A stretch of DNA of 64,000 nucleotides, from IMG/VR virus record IMGVR_UViG_3300046832_000578; one strand, 5' to 3'. The notes below the pieces were generated by a model that saw only the letters and a program-made list of their open reading frames with translations, did no database searches and was not told the origin of the DNA. Numbering within the stretch: position 1 is the stretch's first letter; each line of letters opens with the position of its first letter. Below, in pieces: positions 1,446-50,440 of the stretch. Source of the stretch: a virus. Position numbers and translations under genes: made by a program.

Positions 1446-2413
1446 TATATCTTTTCGATAATTGTTATCTATCAACTACAAATAGTATTGTTGAAAAATC
1501 TAAACAGATTTGGATAGGGTCTCATGCAAAATTAGATCGAGATCCAATGCTCAATCTTACATATGATATTTTACATTCATATAAAGAGGTCAACGATGAT
1601 GAGTTAGAAGAATTATTTAATGAAATTCATGAAGATTATTCGAATATTAAAACTGTAATTTATTGTGATGTTGAGAACTTTATGTATGTATACTCATACT
1701 TCTTTAATGGTGTATTAGAAGAATCTGCTGTTAAAGAATTATACTCATTCGATAGACTTAAAGAAAATTATAGAATTGGTGTATTCGCAACTAGAGATGT
1801 AGAGTTTGTAGATCTACCAAAGACTTTAAAGGGAACAGATACTGCATCTATCTTTTCTTCTTTATTGACTACAACAAGAATAGAAATTGCATTTGCAAAC
1901 GCTATGAGAGGTAATGAAGATGCCTTACAATTCTGCGTGGATCGTGCCACTGAAATGTATGATGGATCTCCTGGATTTTGGTCTAAAGATGCTGAACAAA
2001 ATTTACCAGCATTACTTTCAGATGAAGAATTTACAATTGCAAATTTAACTAATAATGAGTTTATTGATTCTTTTGTGGAACAGTTTGAGATCGATGAAGT
2101 ATTTCCAAATAAAATTGTAGATAAAATTAAAGAACATTTTGATTTTGATTATCTAGAACATTACTTTACTGTAATGAATAATACCACAGAATGGAAACCA
2201 ATGTGGGATCAAGATGCAAATATTTCTAAACAAAAATTTGTTGAGACTTACCTTTTAAATAAAGAGTTTGCGTCTGGCAATCAATTATTATTTCCTAACT
2301 ATTCTAATTTTGATTCAATTAATCCAATTTTCTGGAACACCATTCTCCATAAAAATACAGCATGGCTTGACAAGTATAAAGTGAAAAATGGAACTTATAA
2401 TCAAACCAACTGA
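1442..2413 (+). CDS. Hypothetical protein, probable paralogue of the previous gene (IYCD motif)
   Basis: Start moved to ATG 1442 (ATGA overlap with the upstream stop); MIYLFDNCY and KTVIYCDVE. Confidence 0.7.
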   Translation: MIYLFDNCYLSTTNSIVEKSKQIWIGSHAKLDRDPMLNLTYDILHSYKEVNDDELEELFNEIHEDYSNIKTVIYCDVENFMYVYSYFFNGVLEESAVKELYSFDRLKENYRIGVFATRDVEFVDLPKTLKGTDTASIFSSLLTTTRIEIAFANAMRGNEDALQFCVDRATEMYDGSPGFWSKDAEQNLPALLSDEEFTIANLTNNEFIDSFVEQFEIDEVFPNKIVDKIKEHFDFDYLEHYFTVMNNTTEWKPMWDQDANISKQKFVETYLLNKEFASGNQLLFPNYSNFDSINPIFWNTILHKNTAWLDKYKVKNGTYNQTN

Positions 2414-3434
2414 GTTATGTAATTTTAAGTGCACCTTTTGTTCATCAACCAAAATCGTAGAAGACAAAGCAAGCACTCTTGATCATCAGCACATTTTTGA
2501 TTTTTTAAAAAGATTTCCAAACACAAATAGTATTATTGTCAATGGCGGAGATCCGCTAATGATGAAACCAGAATACTACTTCACTATACTTGACTATATT
2601 GAAGAACACAATCTCCCAACAAACATAAGTTTCACCACAAATCTCTGGGCATTCTATAAGAAACCAGAGATGTGGACACCTTTATTCAAACACCCAAGAG
2701 TTGCAGTTACAACAAGTTTTCAATATGGATTTGGTCGTGTAATATCAGGAACCAGAGTCTATACTGAAAAAGACTTTTGGAATGTTAGCGATTTGTTCCT
2801 AAAAGAAGTTGGTTATCGTCCAGGATTTATTGCAGTTATCTCTGAAGAAAATGAGAAACATGCAATTCGTCATGTGGAGTTAGCCAAGAAAATGGATGTC
2901 CAATGTAAGTTAAACTATGCCATGGCATCTGGAGAACAATCATCACCATATCGCCTAAGTAAAATATACGAAATGTATATTGAAGTTTACGAACGAGGAC
3001 TTCATCCGTGGGAGTTTAATACTAAACAGATGATGACTCGTCTGAATAATATCGCTAATGTGTGTCCTCAAGCAAGAAATTGTGATGACCATATTAGAGC
3101 AATGAATCCAGAGGGTGATTATTACTCTTGTGGAGCGATGGGTGACGATAAAGAATATCCAATTAACTTTGTAAAGGAAGTTAAAGAAGGTGGTTTTATA
3201 ACTCCACTGCAAAACGCACCAGAGTTGTTTTCATTGAAAGATGAATGTGTTACTTGTCCGATGTTTAGTATTTGCAACGGATGTAAGAAAACGATTAAAG
3301 ATTTGAAACAGCATGGAATGGTTGAAGAGCATTGTTCTCATATGAAACAGTTGGCTCCAAGAATTATACAAATTAACAGTGAAACAGATTATGTCGAAGC
3401 AACTCAAAGAATCCATAAGAATCTCGTTTCTTAA
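2388..3434 (+). CDS. Radical SAM protein with SPASM/twitch-like C-terminal Cys cluster (anSME/peptide maturase-like)
   Basis: IIKPTELCNFKCTFC (CX3CX2C), NGGDPL motif, FTTNL; C-terminal CPQARNC...YSC...ECVTCPMFSICNGC...HC. Confidence 0.9.
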   Translation: MELIIKPTELCNFKCTFCSSTKIVEDKASTLDHQHIFDFLKRFPNTNSIIVNGGDPLMMKPEYYFTILDYIEEHNLPTNISFTTNLWAFYKKPEMWTPLFKHPRVAVTTSFQYGFGRVISGTRVYTEKDFWNVSDLFLKEVGYRPGFIAVISEENEKHAIRHVELAKKMDVQCKLNYAMASGEQSSPYRLSKIYEMYIEVYERGLHPWEFNTKQMMTRLNNIANVCPQARNCDDHIRAMNPEGDYYSCGAMGDDKEYPINFVKEVKEGGFITPLQNAPELFSLKDECVTCPMFSICNGCKKTIKDLKQHGMVEEHCSHMKQLAPRIIQINSETDYVEATQRIHKNLVS

Positions 3435-5268
3435 TATTGATTTAAGAGTTCCTATTGTAAGGTTGCCGATTAACTGGCTTAACTTTAAGAACTATTATAT
3501 TAAACACGGTAAGTATGCGTCACATGTAAAATGGGAAGAACCAATTCTAAATTTAGAAGATTGGTCATTTGAAGATATCGTTGACTACTACGATAAACAA
3601 GATTCTGACATTTATGCATTTTCTAGTTATCTTTGGAGTCACATGGCTATTATGGCTGTGGCAAAGGAACTAAAGGAAAGAAACCCAAAAAGAATTATTG
3701 TGCTTGGTGGTCCACATCTTAATATTACGCATAATAAAATTGATTGGTTCTTTAAGAATAAATTTATAGATGCTATTTGTGAACCCACCAGTTATGGTGA
3801 ATGGTTTATTAATGACATTCTTGATCAATTTGTTGAAGGTGATATAGACTGGAAAGAAGTTTCATTTTCAATCTATAAAACTGGTCGTGGTAAAAGCCCA
3901 AATAAAATTGACTTTGAGTTTCCTGGAAGTTTAATTGCAGGTAATGAAGACATTTTATTTAAATGTAAAAATATTGCACTGGAGCGAGGTGTTCCATTAG
4001 TTCTACCCATTGAGTTAACTCGTGGATGTCCCTACGAATGTGTGTTCTGCGAATGGGGTGGTGGAATTGGTGGTAAGGTTATCCGTAAATCTATGAACTT
4101 TATTAAAGAAGATCTAGATTGGATACCTCAGGTTGGTATTGATCAAATTCAAATTCTTGATGCCAACTATGGTATTTACAAAGAAGATGAAGATGTCTCA
4201 AAATATATTGAAGAAATAAAATCGTTTTCTGGTCTTCCAACTCATGTTGAGATTTATGGTATGACCAAGTCTAAACAAGAACGAAGATGGGCAACAATTG
4301 AACCACTGGCAAGAGCAGGTGTGGTTGAACGATATAAATTAAGTTTACAAACTCTTAACAACGAGGTTCTTCGTAACATTAAACGAACTGATATTCCTCG
4401 TGAAAAAGACTTTGAGTTTGCCAAGTATCTATTCGATGAATATGGTATTCGAGCAGACTTTGAATTTATGATGGGTCTTCCAGGTTATACTCAAAACGAC
4501 TTTTATGACGAAGTTGATATTCAGTATGAGTATGGTTATGGGTTGGAACGATACCTTTGGTTATTTCTACCAGACTCTCCTGCATACGATCCTGAATATA
4601 TTAAAAAGTTTAATATTAAAACTGAAAAGATTTGCATTGGTAAATCTAAAATGAATAGTTATTCTTACGATGACATTAATATCTTTAAAGATTACCATAT
4701 ATCATCTGATCCTAAATTTTTATCTGATGTAGAGTTTGTGGTCGAAGCAGATGGTTACACAAGAAAAGACTTTACGGAGTTTTTCTTTATGAATCATTGG
4801 ATACTTGAAAATGTTTCCATGATTGACTTTACAGATACGATAGTTAAGCACAATATTGCAATCGGTAGGCTAGAAAAACCTTCTTTAATTTTTAGGAAAA
4901 TTTATGAAGGTATTACCTCTCCCAGTGAAAATAAATATGTATTGGCAATGCAAGATCTTAATAGTCAGATGTATGATTTAATGATGGGTAACAGGAAAGA
5001 GATCGTAGATTATAAACAATTTAATTTACCGTTTACTGATGTATCTGTTGATTTTTCTTACATTTACAAAGTGTGTGTTTTAGTATTTGAAGAGGATTAT
5101 ATTAAATTTTTAATAGGTATTGGTAAAGAACTTAATCTTGAGATCCCAGAAAATATAGTGGAGCAGTTTAAAGAAAAATTGAATAGTTATAAGAATACTT
5201 TTTCACCAAAATATGATAAATTCTATCAGATAAGAACATACTATGAACGAGTTATTAGAGAAGGTTAA
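3391..5268 (+). CDS. Cobalamin (B12)-binding domain radical SAM protein (class B methyltransferase-like)
   Basis: N-terminal B12-binding-like segment FSSYLWS...AKELKERNPKRIIVLGGPH, then ELTRGCPYECVFCEWG, DANYG, SLQTLN..VLRNIKR, FMMGLPG. Start is ATG 3391 or GTG 3379. Confidence 0.88.
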   Translation: MSKQLKESIRISFLNIDLRVPIVRLPINWLNFKNYYIKHGKYASHVKWEEPILNLEDWSFEDIVDYYDKQDSDIYAFSSYLWSHMAIMAVAKELKERNPKRIIVLGGPHLNITHNKIDWFFKNKFIDAICEPTSYGEWFINDILDQFVEGDIDWKEVSFSIYKTGRGKSPNKIDFEFPGSLIAGNEDILFKCKNIALERGVPLVLPIELTRGCPYECVFCEWGGGIGGKVIRKSMNFIKEDLDWIPQVGIDQIQILDANYGIYKEDEDVSKYIEEIKSFSGLPTHVEIYGMTKSKQERRWATIEPLARAGVVERYKLSLQTLNNEVLRNIKRTDIPREKDFEFAKYLFDEYGIRADFEFMMGLPGYTQNDFYDEVDIQYEYGYGLERYLWLFLPDSPAYDPEYIKKFNIKTEKICIGKSKMNSYSYDDINIFKDYHISSDPKFLSDVEFVVEADGYTRKDFTEFFFMNHWILENVSMIDFTDTIVKHNIAIGRLEKPSLIFRKIYEGITSPSENKYVLAMQDLNSQMYDLMMGNRKEIVDYKQFNLPFTDVSVDFSYIYKVCVLVFEEDYIKFLIGIGKELNLEIPENIVEQFKEKLNSYKNTFSPKYDKFYQIRTYYERVIREG

Positions 5269-5938
5269 AACTATACCACATCTTCCTCTACTATTCTCAT
5301 TTGATGCTAAGCGAATAGAGAATGAGATTAGAGCGATGCCGTTTCCTCTAATGAGTTATAATGCAAATATACAAAAAGGATATAATCATAGCCCAGATGG
5401 TTGGAATAATCTTTCTTTGTATAGCTACGATGGAAGTATGTTTTGTGACACGAATGAAGGCGATGGTGGTAATGCTTTACTAGAAAGATTTGGTAAATTT
5501 CAAAAAACTGGATTGACAGAATATTTACCCTATACCTATGAGGTTTTAGAGGCTCTTGGTGCAGGAAAGTCTTTATGTAGAATTGAGGAAGTTATGCCGA
5601 GCACCATTATAGGTTGGCATAGCCATGTGTTAGAGTTTCATCAACCAGAGAACATATTGATAGTTCAGCTTCCTATTTGTATTCCAGAAGGATTTAAACA
5701 TTCGGTGGTGGATTATCGACAGTATAGAGGATCAGACTTTAATATAAAACCGATTGTTTCATATGACTCTAAATATATCGAAGGTGTTCCTTATATTTTT
5801 AACTCATATCATTATCACAATGTGTTTAATCATGGATCTACTCCAGCCCTTATGATAAGGTTTTTTGTGGATATAGATGATTTAAACCTAATAGAACCTG
5901 CAATAAATTGTTATTCTGGAGACCTAATCGTAGGTTGA
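5243..5938 (+). CDS. Aspartyl/asparaginyl beta-hydroxylase-like 2OG-Fe(II) oxygenase
   Basis: W..LSL motif, CRIEEVMPSTIIGWHSH (first His pair) and IFNSYHYHNVFNHG (distal His), typical of the cupin/AspH fold. Confidence 0.7.
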   Translation: MNELLEKVKTIPHLPLLFSFDAKRIENEIRAMPFPLMSYNANIQKGYNHSPDGWNNLSLYSYDGSMFCDTNEGDGGNALLERFGKFQKTGLTEYLPYTYEVLEALGAGKSLCRIEEVMPSTIIGWHSHVLEFHQPENILIVQLPICIPEGFKHSVVDYRQYRGSDFNIKPIVSYDSKYIEGVPYIFNSYHYHNVFNHGSTPALMIRFFVDIDDLNLIEPAINCYSGDLIVG

Positions 5939-47251: not shown

Positions 47252-47301
47252 TTTCAGAGAGGATATAATTCCTCTCTATTCTATATTATGTGGAGATTTA
47301 T

Positions 47302-48255
47302 ATGATTGAAAGTCGTGATGAGCAGTTCTTGTGGGTTGAGAAATATCGCCCACAAAAGATTGATGATTGTATTCTTCCTGAGTCTTTAAAGAAGACATTC
47401 AAGGATTATGTTGCACAAGGTGAGTTGCCTCACTTTCTATTGTGTGGCACGGCAGGTGTAGGTAAAACTACCATCGCCAAAGCATTGTGTAACGAAATCG
47501 GTGCAGAGTATGTAATTCTTAATGGTTCAGATACTGGTGGTCATATCGATACACTCCGTACTACTATTAAGGGTTTTGCTACATCTGTGTCGCTAACTGA
47601 TGCTAAGAAAGTTATTATCTTAGACGAAGCAGATTATCTACAAGCAAACTCCACCCAACCAGCACTCCGTAATTACATGGAAGAATTCTCTGCCAATTGC
47701 AGATTTATCTTCACTGCTAATTATAAGAATCGTATCATTGAACCGATTCATTCTCGCTGTGCTGTTATTGAATTTAAGATTGACTCTAAAGAGAAGCAAG
47801 AGATTGCTGCAGCATTCTTTAAACGAGCAACTGCTATTCTCAAACAAGAAAACATTGAGTTCGATCCTAAAGTTGTAGCAGAACTAATCACCAAACACTT
47901 TCCTGATTATCGTCGTATTCTTAATGAGATGCAACGATACTCTGTGTCAGGTAAAATCGACTCAGGCATTCTCGTCAATATGTCTGAAGAATCTTTCAAA
48001 GGTTTAATTAAACTTATGAAGGACAAAGACTTTACTGAAGTGCGTAAATGGGTTGCCAAAAACTCTGATGCAGATACAACTGCATTGTTTCGTGAATTGT
48101 ATGACAACGCATCCGTAAATATGGATGTGAATAGTATTCCACCAATGGTTCTTATCCTAGCAGACTATCAATACAAAGCAGCATTTGTGGCTGACCATGA
48201 ACTAAATATTATGGCAGCACTAACTGAGATTATGGCTCAGTGCAAATTCAAATGA
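47302..48255 (+). CDS. gp44: Clamp loader ATPase subunit gp44
   Basis: LWVEKYRP..IDDCILP, GTAGVGKTT, IILDEAD, RFIFTAN, SRC, FPDYRR. Confidence 0.95.
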   Translation: MIESRDEQFLWVEKYRPQKIDDCILPESLKKTFKDYVAQGELPHFLLCGTAGVGKTTIAKALCNEIGAEYVILNGSDTGGHIDTLRTTIKGFATSVSLTDAKKVIILDEADYLQANSTQPALRNYMEEFSANCRFIFTANYKNRIIEPIHSRCAVIEFKIDSKEKQEIAAAFFKRATAILKQENIEFDPKVVAELITKHFPDYRRILNEMQRYSVSGKIDSGILVNMSEESFKGLIKLMKDKDFTEVRKWVAKNSDADTTALFRELYDNASVNMDVNSIPPMVLILADYQYKAAFVADHELNIMAALTEIMAQCKFK

Positions 48256-48262
48256 GGATGCC

Positions 48263-48583
48263 ATGGAATTTCTTATACTCTTTGCCGTACTAGTAGTGGG
48301 TATCCACTGGGGCTGGACTGCTCGTGAAGCAGTTGCTAAACGAAGAGCAGACTTTCTTTTATCTAAATTACAAGAGATAGAAGAAGATACTCCAGAAGAT
48401 ATTATCCGTATTAATATTGAAAAAGATAATGGTGTGCTCTTTGCATACTACGAACAAGATAGTCGTTTTATAGTACAAGCAAACAGTCGTGAAGAACTGG
48501 AGAATAAACTAAAAGAATTGTTTCCAGGAAAACGATTTGGTTGTTCTCCAGAAACCTTAAGAAAATGTGGCTTTATATTATGA
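48263..48583 (+). CDS. Hypothetical protein with N-terminal membrane anchor
   Basis: Hydrophobic MEFLILFAVLVVGIHWG; GAGG SD. Confidence 0.6.
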   Translation: MEFLILFAVLVVGIHWGWTAREAVAKRRADFLLSKLQEIEEDTPEDIIRINIEKDNGVLFAYYEQDSRFIVQANSREELENKLKELFPGKRFGCSPETLRKCGFIL

Positions 48584-48957
48584 CTCCCTTTGACTTTATT
48601 AATGCAATTAACCTAACCAAAAAGAATCTGTTCGAAGATCCACAAGCAGAGAAAGACTATCTCCCCTTTCTTGTGAACAGGGGTTTGTCTTATTTTCCCG
48701 ATACAGTCCTTTATGCCAACGAGATGAATCGTAACTCTGGCATCCCAAAAGACTGGCAATTTTCCTTTTTCCTAAATACTATACCAAAGAAAAAGAGATT
48801 CAGTAAGTGGCATAAAAAAGATGCCGATTCTGATTCCTTGACACTCGTTAAAGAGTACTTTGGTTACTCATCAGAGAAAGCATTAGAAGCATTGAGCATT
48901 CTCTCCGATGAACAGTTGGCTATGATAAAAGAAAAATTATACAAAGGTGGAAAATAA
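48580..48957 (+). CDS. gp62: Clamp loader subunit gp62
   Basis: PFDFINAIN..K, Y.PFLVNRGLSYF.DT..YANEMN, KKKRFSKW.K, VKEYFGYS..KA. Confidence 0.92.
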   Translation: MTPFDFINAINLTKKNLFEDPQAEKDYLPFLVNRGLSYFPDTVLYANEMNRNSGIPKDWQFSFFLNTIPKKKRFSKWHKKDADSDSLTLVKEYFGYSSEKALEALSILSDEQLAMIKEKLYKGGK

Positions 48958-49376
48958 TGACTGTTGAGATGATTTACTACGACTGGACTCCCGAGTCCAT
49001 GCTTGAAGTGATACTGCCAGAACCAGACAATTTTTTAAAGGTTCGTGAGACACTTACTCGCATCGGCATCGCATCCAGAAAAGAAAACAAACTGTATCAA
49101 TCGTGCCATATCTTGCATAAGCAGGGTAGGTATTTCATCGTGCATTTTAAAGAATTGTTCGCTCTTGATGGTAAAGAATCAAACATCACGAGTGGAGATA
49201 TTGAGAGAAGAAACGCTATTGCTAGTTTATTGCAAGACTGGGATCTTTTAAAGATTCTAAATAATGCATTGGTAGAACAAAAAGCATCACTCTCTCAAAT
49301 TAAGGTGGTCTCTTATAAAGAAAAAGACCAGTGGGAATTAGTTCCAAAATATAACATAGGAAAAAAATCAAAATGA
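48957..49376 (+). CDS. regA: Translational repressor RegA
   Basis: PDNFLKVRETLTRIGIAS, LYQSCHILHKQGRYFIVHFKELF.LDG, W.LVPKYNIG. Confidence 0.96.
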   Translation: MTVEMIYYDWTPESMLEVILPEPDNFLKVRETLTRIGIASRKENKLYQSCHILHKQGRYFIVHFKELFALDGKESNITSGDIERRNAIASLLQDWDLLKILNNALVEQKASLSQIKVVSYKEKDQWELVPKYNIGKKSK

Positions 49377-49546
49377 TCAAACTTGAATTGACAGTAGATG
49401 AGTGCAATACTATTCTTCGTGTATTAGGTAAGCACCCATTTGAGGAAGTTGTAACAATTATTAACAAGATTAAAGCACAAGGCGAGCCACAAGTGCTAGC
49501 CATGGCAGAAGCAGAAAAATCTGCAGCTGAAGAACCAAAAGCATAA
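49373..49546 (+). CDS. Small hypothetical protein (57 aa), not in the ORF track
   Basis: ATGA overlap with the regA stop, AGGA SD; MIKLELTVDECNTILRVLGKHPFEEVVTIINKIKAQGEPQVLAMAEAEKSAAEEPKA. Confidence 0.7.
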   Translation: MIKLELTVDECNTILRVLGKHPFEEVVTIINKIKAQGEPQVLAMAEAEKSAAEEPKA

Positions 49547-49650
49547 ATACCATTAGGCATAACTAATGATTTTACTTAGGTTGTTTTTATGTTCTCCGTT
49601 ATAAGTATAAATGTCCTCTATGGACACTAACTTAATTAAGGAGAAAGATT

Positions 49651-49722
49651 ATGTGGACAACACCGACAGCAACAGACATGAGATTCGGATTCGAAGTAAC
49701 AATGTATGTGATGAACAGATAA
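49651..49722 (+). CDS. pqqA: Pyrroloquinoline quinone precursor peptide PqqA
   Basis: Translates to MWTTPTATDMRFGFEVTMYVMNR* (23 aa), with the MW..P...R.GFEVT.Y signature and the ExxxY core; strong AAGGAG SD 8 nt upstream. Confidence 0.93.
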   Translation: MWTTPTATDMRFGFEVTMYVMNR

Positions 49723-49802
49723 GTTTAGAACCTACAAAAGAAGATAAAGAAATAAATATGCAAAAGTTACTTGAAAGTTTAAGTGACTGTGTATAAAAAT
49801 TC

Positions 49803-49898
49803 ACCTTAGGACCACTAAGTTACGAATCGTTATAAAGCAGACATGACGCACGATGTCGCTGGAATTGTAACCAGCATCTGATATGCCTTCGGGGTATC
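49803..49898 (+). ncRNA. Candidate structured RNA / 5' leader of hsp20 (four stem-loops)
   Basis: CTTAG/CTAAG (49805-49819), GACAT/ATGTC (49840-49857), GCTGG/CCAGC (49858-49875), GATATGCC-ttcg-GGGTATC (49880-49898). Confidence 0.45.
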
Positions 49899-49933
49899 AA
49901 TTTTAATTTAACTCGCTTAATAGGAGAAACAAA

Positions 49934-50440
49934 ATGGTAAGACAATTCATCCCCACAATTTTTGGTGAACACTTCAAAGACTTTGATAAGGTGTTCGTAG
50001 GTTTTGACGACCAGTTCTCGAAGATGCAAAGTCTTCATGACGAACTAACCAAAAACATCCCTAACTATCCTCCATTCAATGTTCGTAAGAACGGTAATAC
50101 CTACACGATTGAAATCGCTGTAGCAGGTTTCGCACAAAACGAAATCGACATTACCATCGATGGTGGCAAACTAATCGTTAAGGGTAACTCTGAATCAAAA
50201 GATCCAGAAGATACTGATTACTTGTTCAAAGGTATTGGCATGCGTGCGTTTACTCGTGCATGGGCAATCGGTGACCAGTATGAAGTTAAAGATGCTGAAC
50301 TGTTCAATGGTGTTCTAAAGATTGCTCTTGATCAATTGATTCCAGAAACACAGAAAGCAAAAAAAGTTCCAGTGAAGACTAAAGGGCAAAAAGAATTCTT
50401 ACGAGAGGACGCATATGACAAAGCTGCTGAAACTCTTTAA
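49934..50440 (+). CDS. hsp20: Small heat shock protein Hsp20 (IbpA-like)
   Basis: VGFD, NYPPFNV, IEIAVAGF, YLFKGIGMRAFTR, A.L.NGVLKI.L. Confidence 0.93.
   Translation: MVRQFIPTIFGEHFKDFDKVFVGFDDQFSKMQSLHDELTKNIPNYPPFNVRKNGNTYTIEIAVAGFAQNEIDITIDGGKLIVKGNSESKDPEDTDYLFKGIGMRAFTRAWAIGDQYEVKDAELFNGVLKIALDQLIPETQKAKKVPVKTKGQKEFLREDAYDKAAETL

Follow-up and report, generated by a model that had tools for sequence, protein, structure and literature searches.

Viruses that carry pqqA, the gene for the PQQ precursor peptide, are already known, and the copy described here adds one more case. Coutinho et al. (2020, Microbiome 8:163; PMC7678222) found that T4-like viruses of Methylophilaceae from Lake Baikal encode PqqA and methanol dehydrogenase, and they proposed the same role that is considered below, the support of methanol oxidation. 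A 2026 reservoir study (PMC13188868) lists viral pqqA, pqqD, and pqqE among auxiliary metabolic genes (AMGs). The original prediction for the locus examined here had cautioned that viral pqqA might already be published, and these two reports show that it was right to do so. In PQQ synthesis PqqD binds PqqA, and the radical-SAM enzyme PqqE cross-links a Glu of the peptide to a Tyr; proteolysis, PqqB, and PqqC then complete PQQ, with one peptide consumed per cofactor (PMC9851590; PMC7678222). For each single set of pqqBCDE, members of the Methylophilaceae have 3-12 copies of pqqA, and their dominant PQQ enzymes are XoxF and MxaF (PMC4109929). The orphan copies of pqqA rank with the most highly expressed ones when PQQ output increases, and PqqA added to cell extracts is converted to PQQ at 70-80% (PMC9851590).

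The DNA analyzed here, called the window, is a 64-kb stretch of a viral genome. The Baikal population VP_266 resembles it in being a T4-like uncultured myophage with a low GC-content (35%, compared with about 37% in the window), a predicted Methylophilaceae host, and PqqA without the pqq enzymes. It differs in that it was reported with viral methanol dehydrogenase and SAM-cycle genes, whereas the 64-kb window contains no methanol dehydrogenase. The two were compared by published description, and their likeness thus does not imply that they are the same lineage. The orphan pqqA genes of Methylophilaceae chromosomes are also similar to the window copy, since they have 23 residues, the same core, a nearly identical leader, and a location away from pqqBCDE; the window copy, however, is on a phage genome and has Thr6, Asp9, and Arg23. 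Cultured methylophages (Melnitz, Venkman, MEP301, MEP401/402, and P19250A) likewise contain pqqA with its own Shine-Dalgarno (SD) sequence and 73-87% peptide identity to the window copy, but at other genomic positions and in other phage types. The features of the window around pqqA are as follows.

47290-48255, gp44 clamp loader, about 60% identical to its best relatives in pelagimyophage HTVC008M and cyanomyophages
48541-48957, gp62
48957-49376, RegA (PF01818, 156 bits)
49373-49546, unnamed 57-codon ORF between regA and pqqA
49551-49573, + strand, AT-rich hairpin (CATTAG / CTAATG) and T run after the 57-codon ORF, read from the sequence
49606-49613, + strand, TATAAATG, T4-late-promoter-like box, candidate promoter, 45 nt before the ATG
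49638-49643, + strand, Shine-Dalgarno sequence AAGGAG, 7 nt before the start codon
49651-49722, + strand, pqqA, PQQ precursor peptide with Glu15 and Tyr19 as the predicted cross-linked pair (PF08042, TIGR02107, dN/dS)
49723-49796, + strand, 74-nt lineage-specific insert containing a 12-codon mini-ORF (49758-49796)
49799-49875, + strand, three-hairpin element (hairpins 49799-49827, 49840-49857, and 49858-49875)
49879-49909, + strand, terminator-like GC hairpin (49879-49899) with a T-rich tail, from the consensus fold
49934-50440, Hsp20 (PF00011)

Positions 49651-49722 of the + strand form an ATG-start ORF of 23 codons plus a stop. Its translation agrees exactly with the 23-residue peptide quoted in the original prediction, which had assigned it to PqqA and had proposed a search with PqqA models. 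That search bore out the assignment: the peptide scored 39.0 bits with the Pfam model PF08042 (cut-off 21.1; E = 7.5e-10; model positions 1-19 of 19) and 37.9 bits with the NCBIfam model TIGR02107 (cut-off 20; model positions 1-21 of 21). The Glu-X3-Tyr motif is intact (Glu15-Val-Thr-Met-Tyr19), and the FGFEVTMY core is whole. PqqA peptides have about 20-40 residues and are independently translated; here there are 23 codons, an ATG, and the predicted AAGGAG, 7 nt upstream. The ORF is not linked in cis to pqqBCDE in the window, but this is no argument against membership in the family, because orphan copies are the rule in Methylophilaceae. We conclude that the ORF is a genuine PqqA, with a match far beyond chance.

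The genes for gp44, gp62, RegA, and Hsp20 are present in T4 order, and the window comes from the genuine phage genome of a T4-like myophage rather than being a fragment of host DNA. The pqqA gene is in its replication-gene region, separated from hsp20 by a spacer of 212 nt. The predicted location between regA and hsp20 was correct, with the 57-codon ORF also lying in that interval. The tblastn queries were every ORF of a Methylophilaceae pqq operon (L250) and of three methanol dehydrogenase loci; they gave no credible match to pqqB, C, D, or E or to methanol dehydrogenase anywhere in the 64-kb window. This search with a whole operon agrees with the statement in the original prediction that pqqBCDE are absent, and it also answers, for the 64-kb window, the proposed check for other pqq or methanol dehydrogenase (xoxF) genes. 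A megablast search with the 5 kb around pqqA gave no match among GenBank phages, and the nearest virus record, G001, gave no PqqA match; that record is 35 kb long and 22% complete and is uninformative about the window phage.

The sequences flanking pqqA were examined for expression signals. The SD sequence is conserved, being present as AAGGAGAA or AGGAGAA before the pqqA ATG in 10 of 10 syntenic contigs; SD-like sequences also precede pqqA in cultured phages. The original prediction had in addition described two late-promoter-like boxes, and these are present, CATAAATA at 49542-49549 and TATAAATG at 49606-49613. Their assignment as promoters fared less well, because exact copies of the T4 late box TATAAATA show no enrichment in the window (2 vs. 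5.7 expected) and the box upstream of pqqA is not maintained in the syntenic relatives, which have TATAAGTG in L054 and others in L079 and L023. The cores ATAAATA and TATAAAT are about ninefold enriched in the intergenic gaps of the window, often 30-41 nt before gene starts. A scan with consensus promoters and terminators gave no convincing hit for pqqA. The hairpin and T run at 49551-49573, which that scan did not flag, are also present in L054, L079, L023, and L053 and could possibly be a weak terminator separating pqqA from the regA transcript.

Downstream of pqqA, the window, L111, and L054 share the 74-nt insert, which L079 lacks and which is probably outside pqqA function. The three-hairpin element that follows is nearly the same in the window and in L111, L054, and L079, within DNA that is otherwise only 77-86% identical. 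The consensus fold of these four sequences keeps all of the stems, with differences mostly in the loops; because the stems hardly vary, there is no covariation support for the fold. Rfam gave no match in the whole window at the gathering level, nor in 49500-49960 even at E = 1, and ARAGORN detected neither tRNA nor tmRNA genes in the window, so the element is no tRNA. Possible identities are a small RNA, the 3' part or untranslated region of the pqqA transcript, and an hsp20 leader. The hairpin at 49879-49899 differs in L054 by two base pairs in which both partners have changed and still pair, and it was missed by a simple terminator scan because of one stem mismatch; with its T-rich tail it probably forms the 3' terminus of the pqqA unit of the window phage. 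In L023, L107, L028, L061, and L032, a canonical GC hairpin and T run lie directly 3' of the pqqA stop. Taken with these flanking signals, pqqA looks like a stand-alone cassette. Five of the T4-like relatives (L107, L028, L061, L075, and L032) also share a motif about 60-90 nt upstream of pqqA, consisting of CTCAAGGTAGAC, a 12-20 nt spacer, and CTCTACTGA; it can form a hairpin, marks one subgroup of these relatives, and is absent from the window.

IMG/VR was scanned for DNA encoding the eight-residue core FGFEVTMY, for which fewer than one match was expected by chance. At least 120 contigs matched; all of those listed hold a complete PqqA ORF, and no frameshifted or start-less copy was seen among them. 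Ten of the matches listed are syntenic T4-like contigs with pqqA after regA (L111, L054, L079, L023, L053, L107, L028, L061, L032, and L075). Of these, L111 has 97.7% DNA identity to the window and an identical peptide, and L054 has 86% DNA identity. Another viral contig, L093, shares Asp9 and Arg23 with the window peptide.

The matches listed included 113 viral copies of 23 codons, with 101 distinct DNA sequences and only 40 peptides. Because the retrieval pattern fixes eight residues, including the Glu15-Tyr19 stretch, the uniformity of the core arises by construction, and only the dN/dS outside the core is a fair measure. For the 14 codons outside the fixed core, pS was 0.52 and pN was 0.14, giving a dN/dS of 0.17, and W2, P5, and R11 were invariant among the viral copies though free to vary. 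Over the whole pqqA frame of the 113 copies dN/dS was 0.08, a value biased by the pattern-fixed residues. Synonymous sites were near saturation across the viral copies (pS 0.5-0.8), compared with a pN of 0.13. Ungapped identity was 83% for the ORF and 35% and 28% for its 72-nt flanks. These results demonstrate that viral pqqA is under purifying selection and is thus, as expected of an AMG, a host homologue kept by selection; the copy in the window is most likely such an auxiliary metabolic gene.

PqqC was looked for in 50 long pqqA-bearing IMG/VR records, of which 7 have a completeness of at least 90%. None of the 50 had a match, and the positive control detected PqqC in 5 of 5. One 72-kb IMG/VR contig (G015, the contig of L036) encodes, in addition to pqqA, a full-length 628-residue PQQ-dependent dehydrogenase of the methanol/ethanol family (L253/L254), which scored 608 bits on TIGR03075, in line with the findings of Coutinho et al.

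To place the peptide among cellular sequences, one genome per prokaryotic species was scanned for DNA coding for EVTMYVMN, which gave at least 120 loci. Nearly all of those listed were from Methylotenera, Methylophilus, Methylopumilus, Methylobacillus, or unnamed Methylophilaceae, and two dominant peptides accounted for 75 and 33 of the loci listed; the same two peptides were the commonest in viruses among the matches listed. The window peptide is identical to the commonest host form among the loci listed at 20 of 23 positions, differing by Thr6, Asp9, and Arg23. These changes are conservative, and the three positions also vary among the viral copies. Neither the Thr6/Asp9/Arg23 combination nor the Asp9...Arg23 variant was found in 301 Methylophilaceae genomes. 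Because the window copy has diverged conservatively within its phage lineage, it is not a fresh capture.

The original prediction had attributed this peptide form to Methylophilaceae, and the near confinement of EVTMYVMN loci to that family, together with named phage hosts that are all Methylophilales, shows that the attribution was correct. From the peptide form we infer that the window phage infects a methylotroph of the Methylophilaceae; the methylotrophic host that had been proposed is supported by the same form, by the Methylophilaceae loci, and by the Methylophilales phage hosts. PqqC scored above the cut-off in all four Methylophilaceae genomes tested (complete or near-complete), with one PqqC in each, the link of the phage to this family being drawn from the peptide form. 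Five Methylophilaceae genomes had 3-5 PqqA genes each, with most copies far from pqqC. Several homologues of PQQ-type dehydrogenases were also present in the host genomes.

A tblastn search of 50,697 GenBank phage records with the window peptide, a check suggested with the original prediction, returned named phages of Methylophilales hosts only, once two contigs excluded below are set aside. The matches had 87% peptide identity in P19250A, 83% in Venkman and MEP301, 74% in MEP401 and MEP402, and 73% in four Melnitz records; the remaining matches were only one uncultured podophage and two contigs of 'Acinetobacter phage MD-2021a'. Nine records of cultured Methylophilales phages, with OM43 or LD28 hosts, thus carry a complete pqqA. 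Both 'Acinetobacter phage MD-2021a' records were excluded as phage examples; the larger (L126; CAKLQF020000010.1) is 144 kb long, is filed as phage, and resembles a bacterial chromosome, with ppk and a full pqqABCDE.

The genomic context of pqqA differs among these phages. Melnitz has it beside tRNA genes and upstream of the baseplate hub. In the siphophages it lies in or next to the recombination module: antisense to the recombination genes on either side, and followed by a hairpin, in Venkman and MEP301, and just downstream of the module in P19250A. The copy in the podophage MEP402 lies close to the end of the record. That the contexts differ argues that unrelated phages either captured the gene repeatedly or have long retained it. 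Considering the IMG/VR contigs (at least 120) and GenBank together, complete pqqA copies span four unrelated genome types. None of the GenBank phage records inspected has an annotation of pqqA, and neither the Melnitz paper nor the MEP401/402 paper mentions it. In the Melnitz record MZ577097.1 (L121), pqqA is on the + strand at 3501-3566, adjoining tRNA-Leu, and a 31-codon hypothetical CDS (gene 152) is called over it on the opposite strand, a likely mis-annotation.

We consider it probable, on the strength of these sequence comparisons, that the window carries a functional phage pqqA, organized as a stand-alone unit, which would feed the host enzymes and so sustain PQQ synthesis and methanol oxidation during infection. 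We infer that the gene is expressed in infection, that its product is processed by host enzymes, and that the phage benefits. The unit would consist of a candidate promoter, a strong ribosome-binding site, the 23 codons, and a hairpin terminator. With no PQQ-synthesis enzymes of its own in the 64-kb window, the phage would rely on those of the host. Because the phage peptide is almost the same as that of the host, host PqqD would be expected to bind it and host PqqE to cross-link Glu15 to Tyr19, with host proteases, PqqB, and PqqC then finishing PQQ; since the window variant is absent from the 301 host-family genomes, this scheme presumes that the variant suits the host enzymes perfectly. One peptide is destroyed per PQQ made while the enzymes turn over, so an additional pqqA message from the phage could maintain or raise the PQQ supply. 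The sustained PQQ would serve the periplasmic methanol dehydrogenases (XoxF/MxaF) and could thereby provide energy while host transcription fades. Supply of the consumed component, the mechanism put forward in the original prediction, fits the purifying selection, the 0 of 50 viral records with PqqC, and the many host pqqA genes per single pqqBCDE set.

Other explanations were weighed against this one. Two of them concern the coding capacity of the locus. An overlapping ORF of 61 codons in another frame (49611-49796) might be the real gene, with the PqqA frame a coincidence, and a length-based gene caller would prefer it because it is longer. In L079, however, the DNA corresponding to window positions 49723-49796, which encodes its C-terminal part, is missing, and the ORF is therefore destroyed there; across the viral copies the two alternative frames have dN/dS values of 2.3 and 3.1, and it is the PqqA frame that matches two curated models. 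These results refute the 61-codon ORF as a gene, and we give practically no weight to a coincidental PqqA frame. A pqqA that is simply a passenger, acquired by recent capture of host DNA or serving as a patch of recombination homology and having no selected coding role, is extremely improbable. The 3-12 near-identical host copies would offer many chances of capture, and siphophage pqqA does sit in recombination modules, but conservation is at the level of the peptide and not of the DNA (pS and pN as given above), the SD sequence and terminator are kept, and the copies listed are free of frameshifts and lost starts. Moreover, the window variant has diverged, conservatively, from all host copies searched, and a T4-like lytic phage does not integrate.

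The other two explanations accept the peptide and assign it a different effect. It could act as a decoy, an over-produced PqqA look-alike that occupies PqqD and PqqE and thereby stops PQQ synthesis or diverts the host. The absence of the Thr6, Asp9, and Arg23 variant from 301 host-family genomes means that it is no plain host copy, which speaks for a decoy. Glu15, Tyr19, and the entire FGFEVTMY core are nevertheless intact, and most viral peptides among the matches listed are identical to the commonest host forms, an identity that blocking would not require; the methanol dehydrogenase carried by some pqqA phages also points to boosting of the pathway. We regard a decoy as very unlikely. It is unlikely, too, that the peptide is processed to PQQ with a benefit other than methanol oxidation, through another PQQ enzyme, an antioxidant effect, or a shared good. 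Host identity is here the sole tie of pqqA to methanol dehydrogenase, and the several PQQ-type dehydrogenase homologues in the host genomes would provide other destinations for the cofactor. Nevertheless, XoxF and MxaF dominate among the PQQ enzymes of Methylophilaceae (PMC4109929), and related phages carry methanol dehydrogenase itself.

If phage pqqA does feed host PQQ synthesis, a functional parallel may be psbA of cyanophages, which encodes the D1 protein and whose expression and function in infection have been demonstrated experimentally. Viral pqqA would be like psbA in that only the fast-consumed part of a host energy machine is carried by the phage and the rest is taken from the host; it differs in pathway and molecule, and its role is predicted from sequence. 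We put at about even the chance that pqqA is the methylotroph counterpart of psbA, a near-universal hallmark of Methylophilaceae phages captured independently by at least four unrelated lineages (T4-like myophages, two siphophage lineages, and Zobell-type podophages). If this were so, the precursor peptide, and not the enzymes, would limit PQQ and methanol-derived energy in infected cells, and the 72-nt pqqA would be a simple marker of methylotroph hosts for uncultured viruses.

Methylophilaceae, represented in marine waters by OM43 and in lakes by LD28/Methylopumilus, are major methanol consumers whose methanol oxidation is entirely PQQ-dependent. Phage supply of the consumed PQQ precursor would let viruses tune one-carbon turnover in surface waters. 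Because gene callers and the GenBank methylophage records miss pqqA, surveys of AMGs undercount it, and the generality of the gene across cultured methylophages, which lack its annotation in the GenBank records inspected, is possibly under-appreciated.

At the other end of the window, the radical-SAM proteins encoded at 2388-5268 were considered as candidates for PqqE and rejected, because PqqE was not among their NCBIfam matches and the neighboring ORFs have no PqqD domain. The gene at 2388-3434 is a generic radical-SAM/SPASM gene resembling peptide maturases, and that at 3379-5268 encodes a B12-binding radical-SAM protein (KedN5-like, 126 bits, below the cut-off of that model). The row of genes at 2388-5938 also holds a weakly matching cupin like the Asp/Asn hydroxylases, and three ORFs without a family match precede it. 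As judged from these family matches, the row is a RiPP-like cassette, separate from pqqA and 45 kb away from it.
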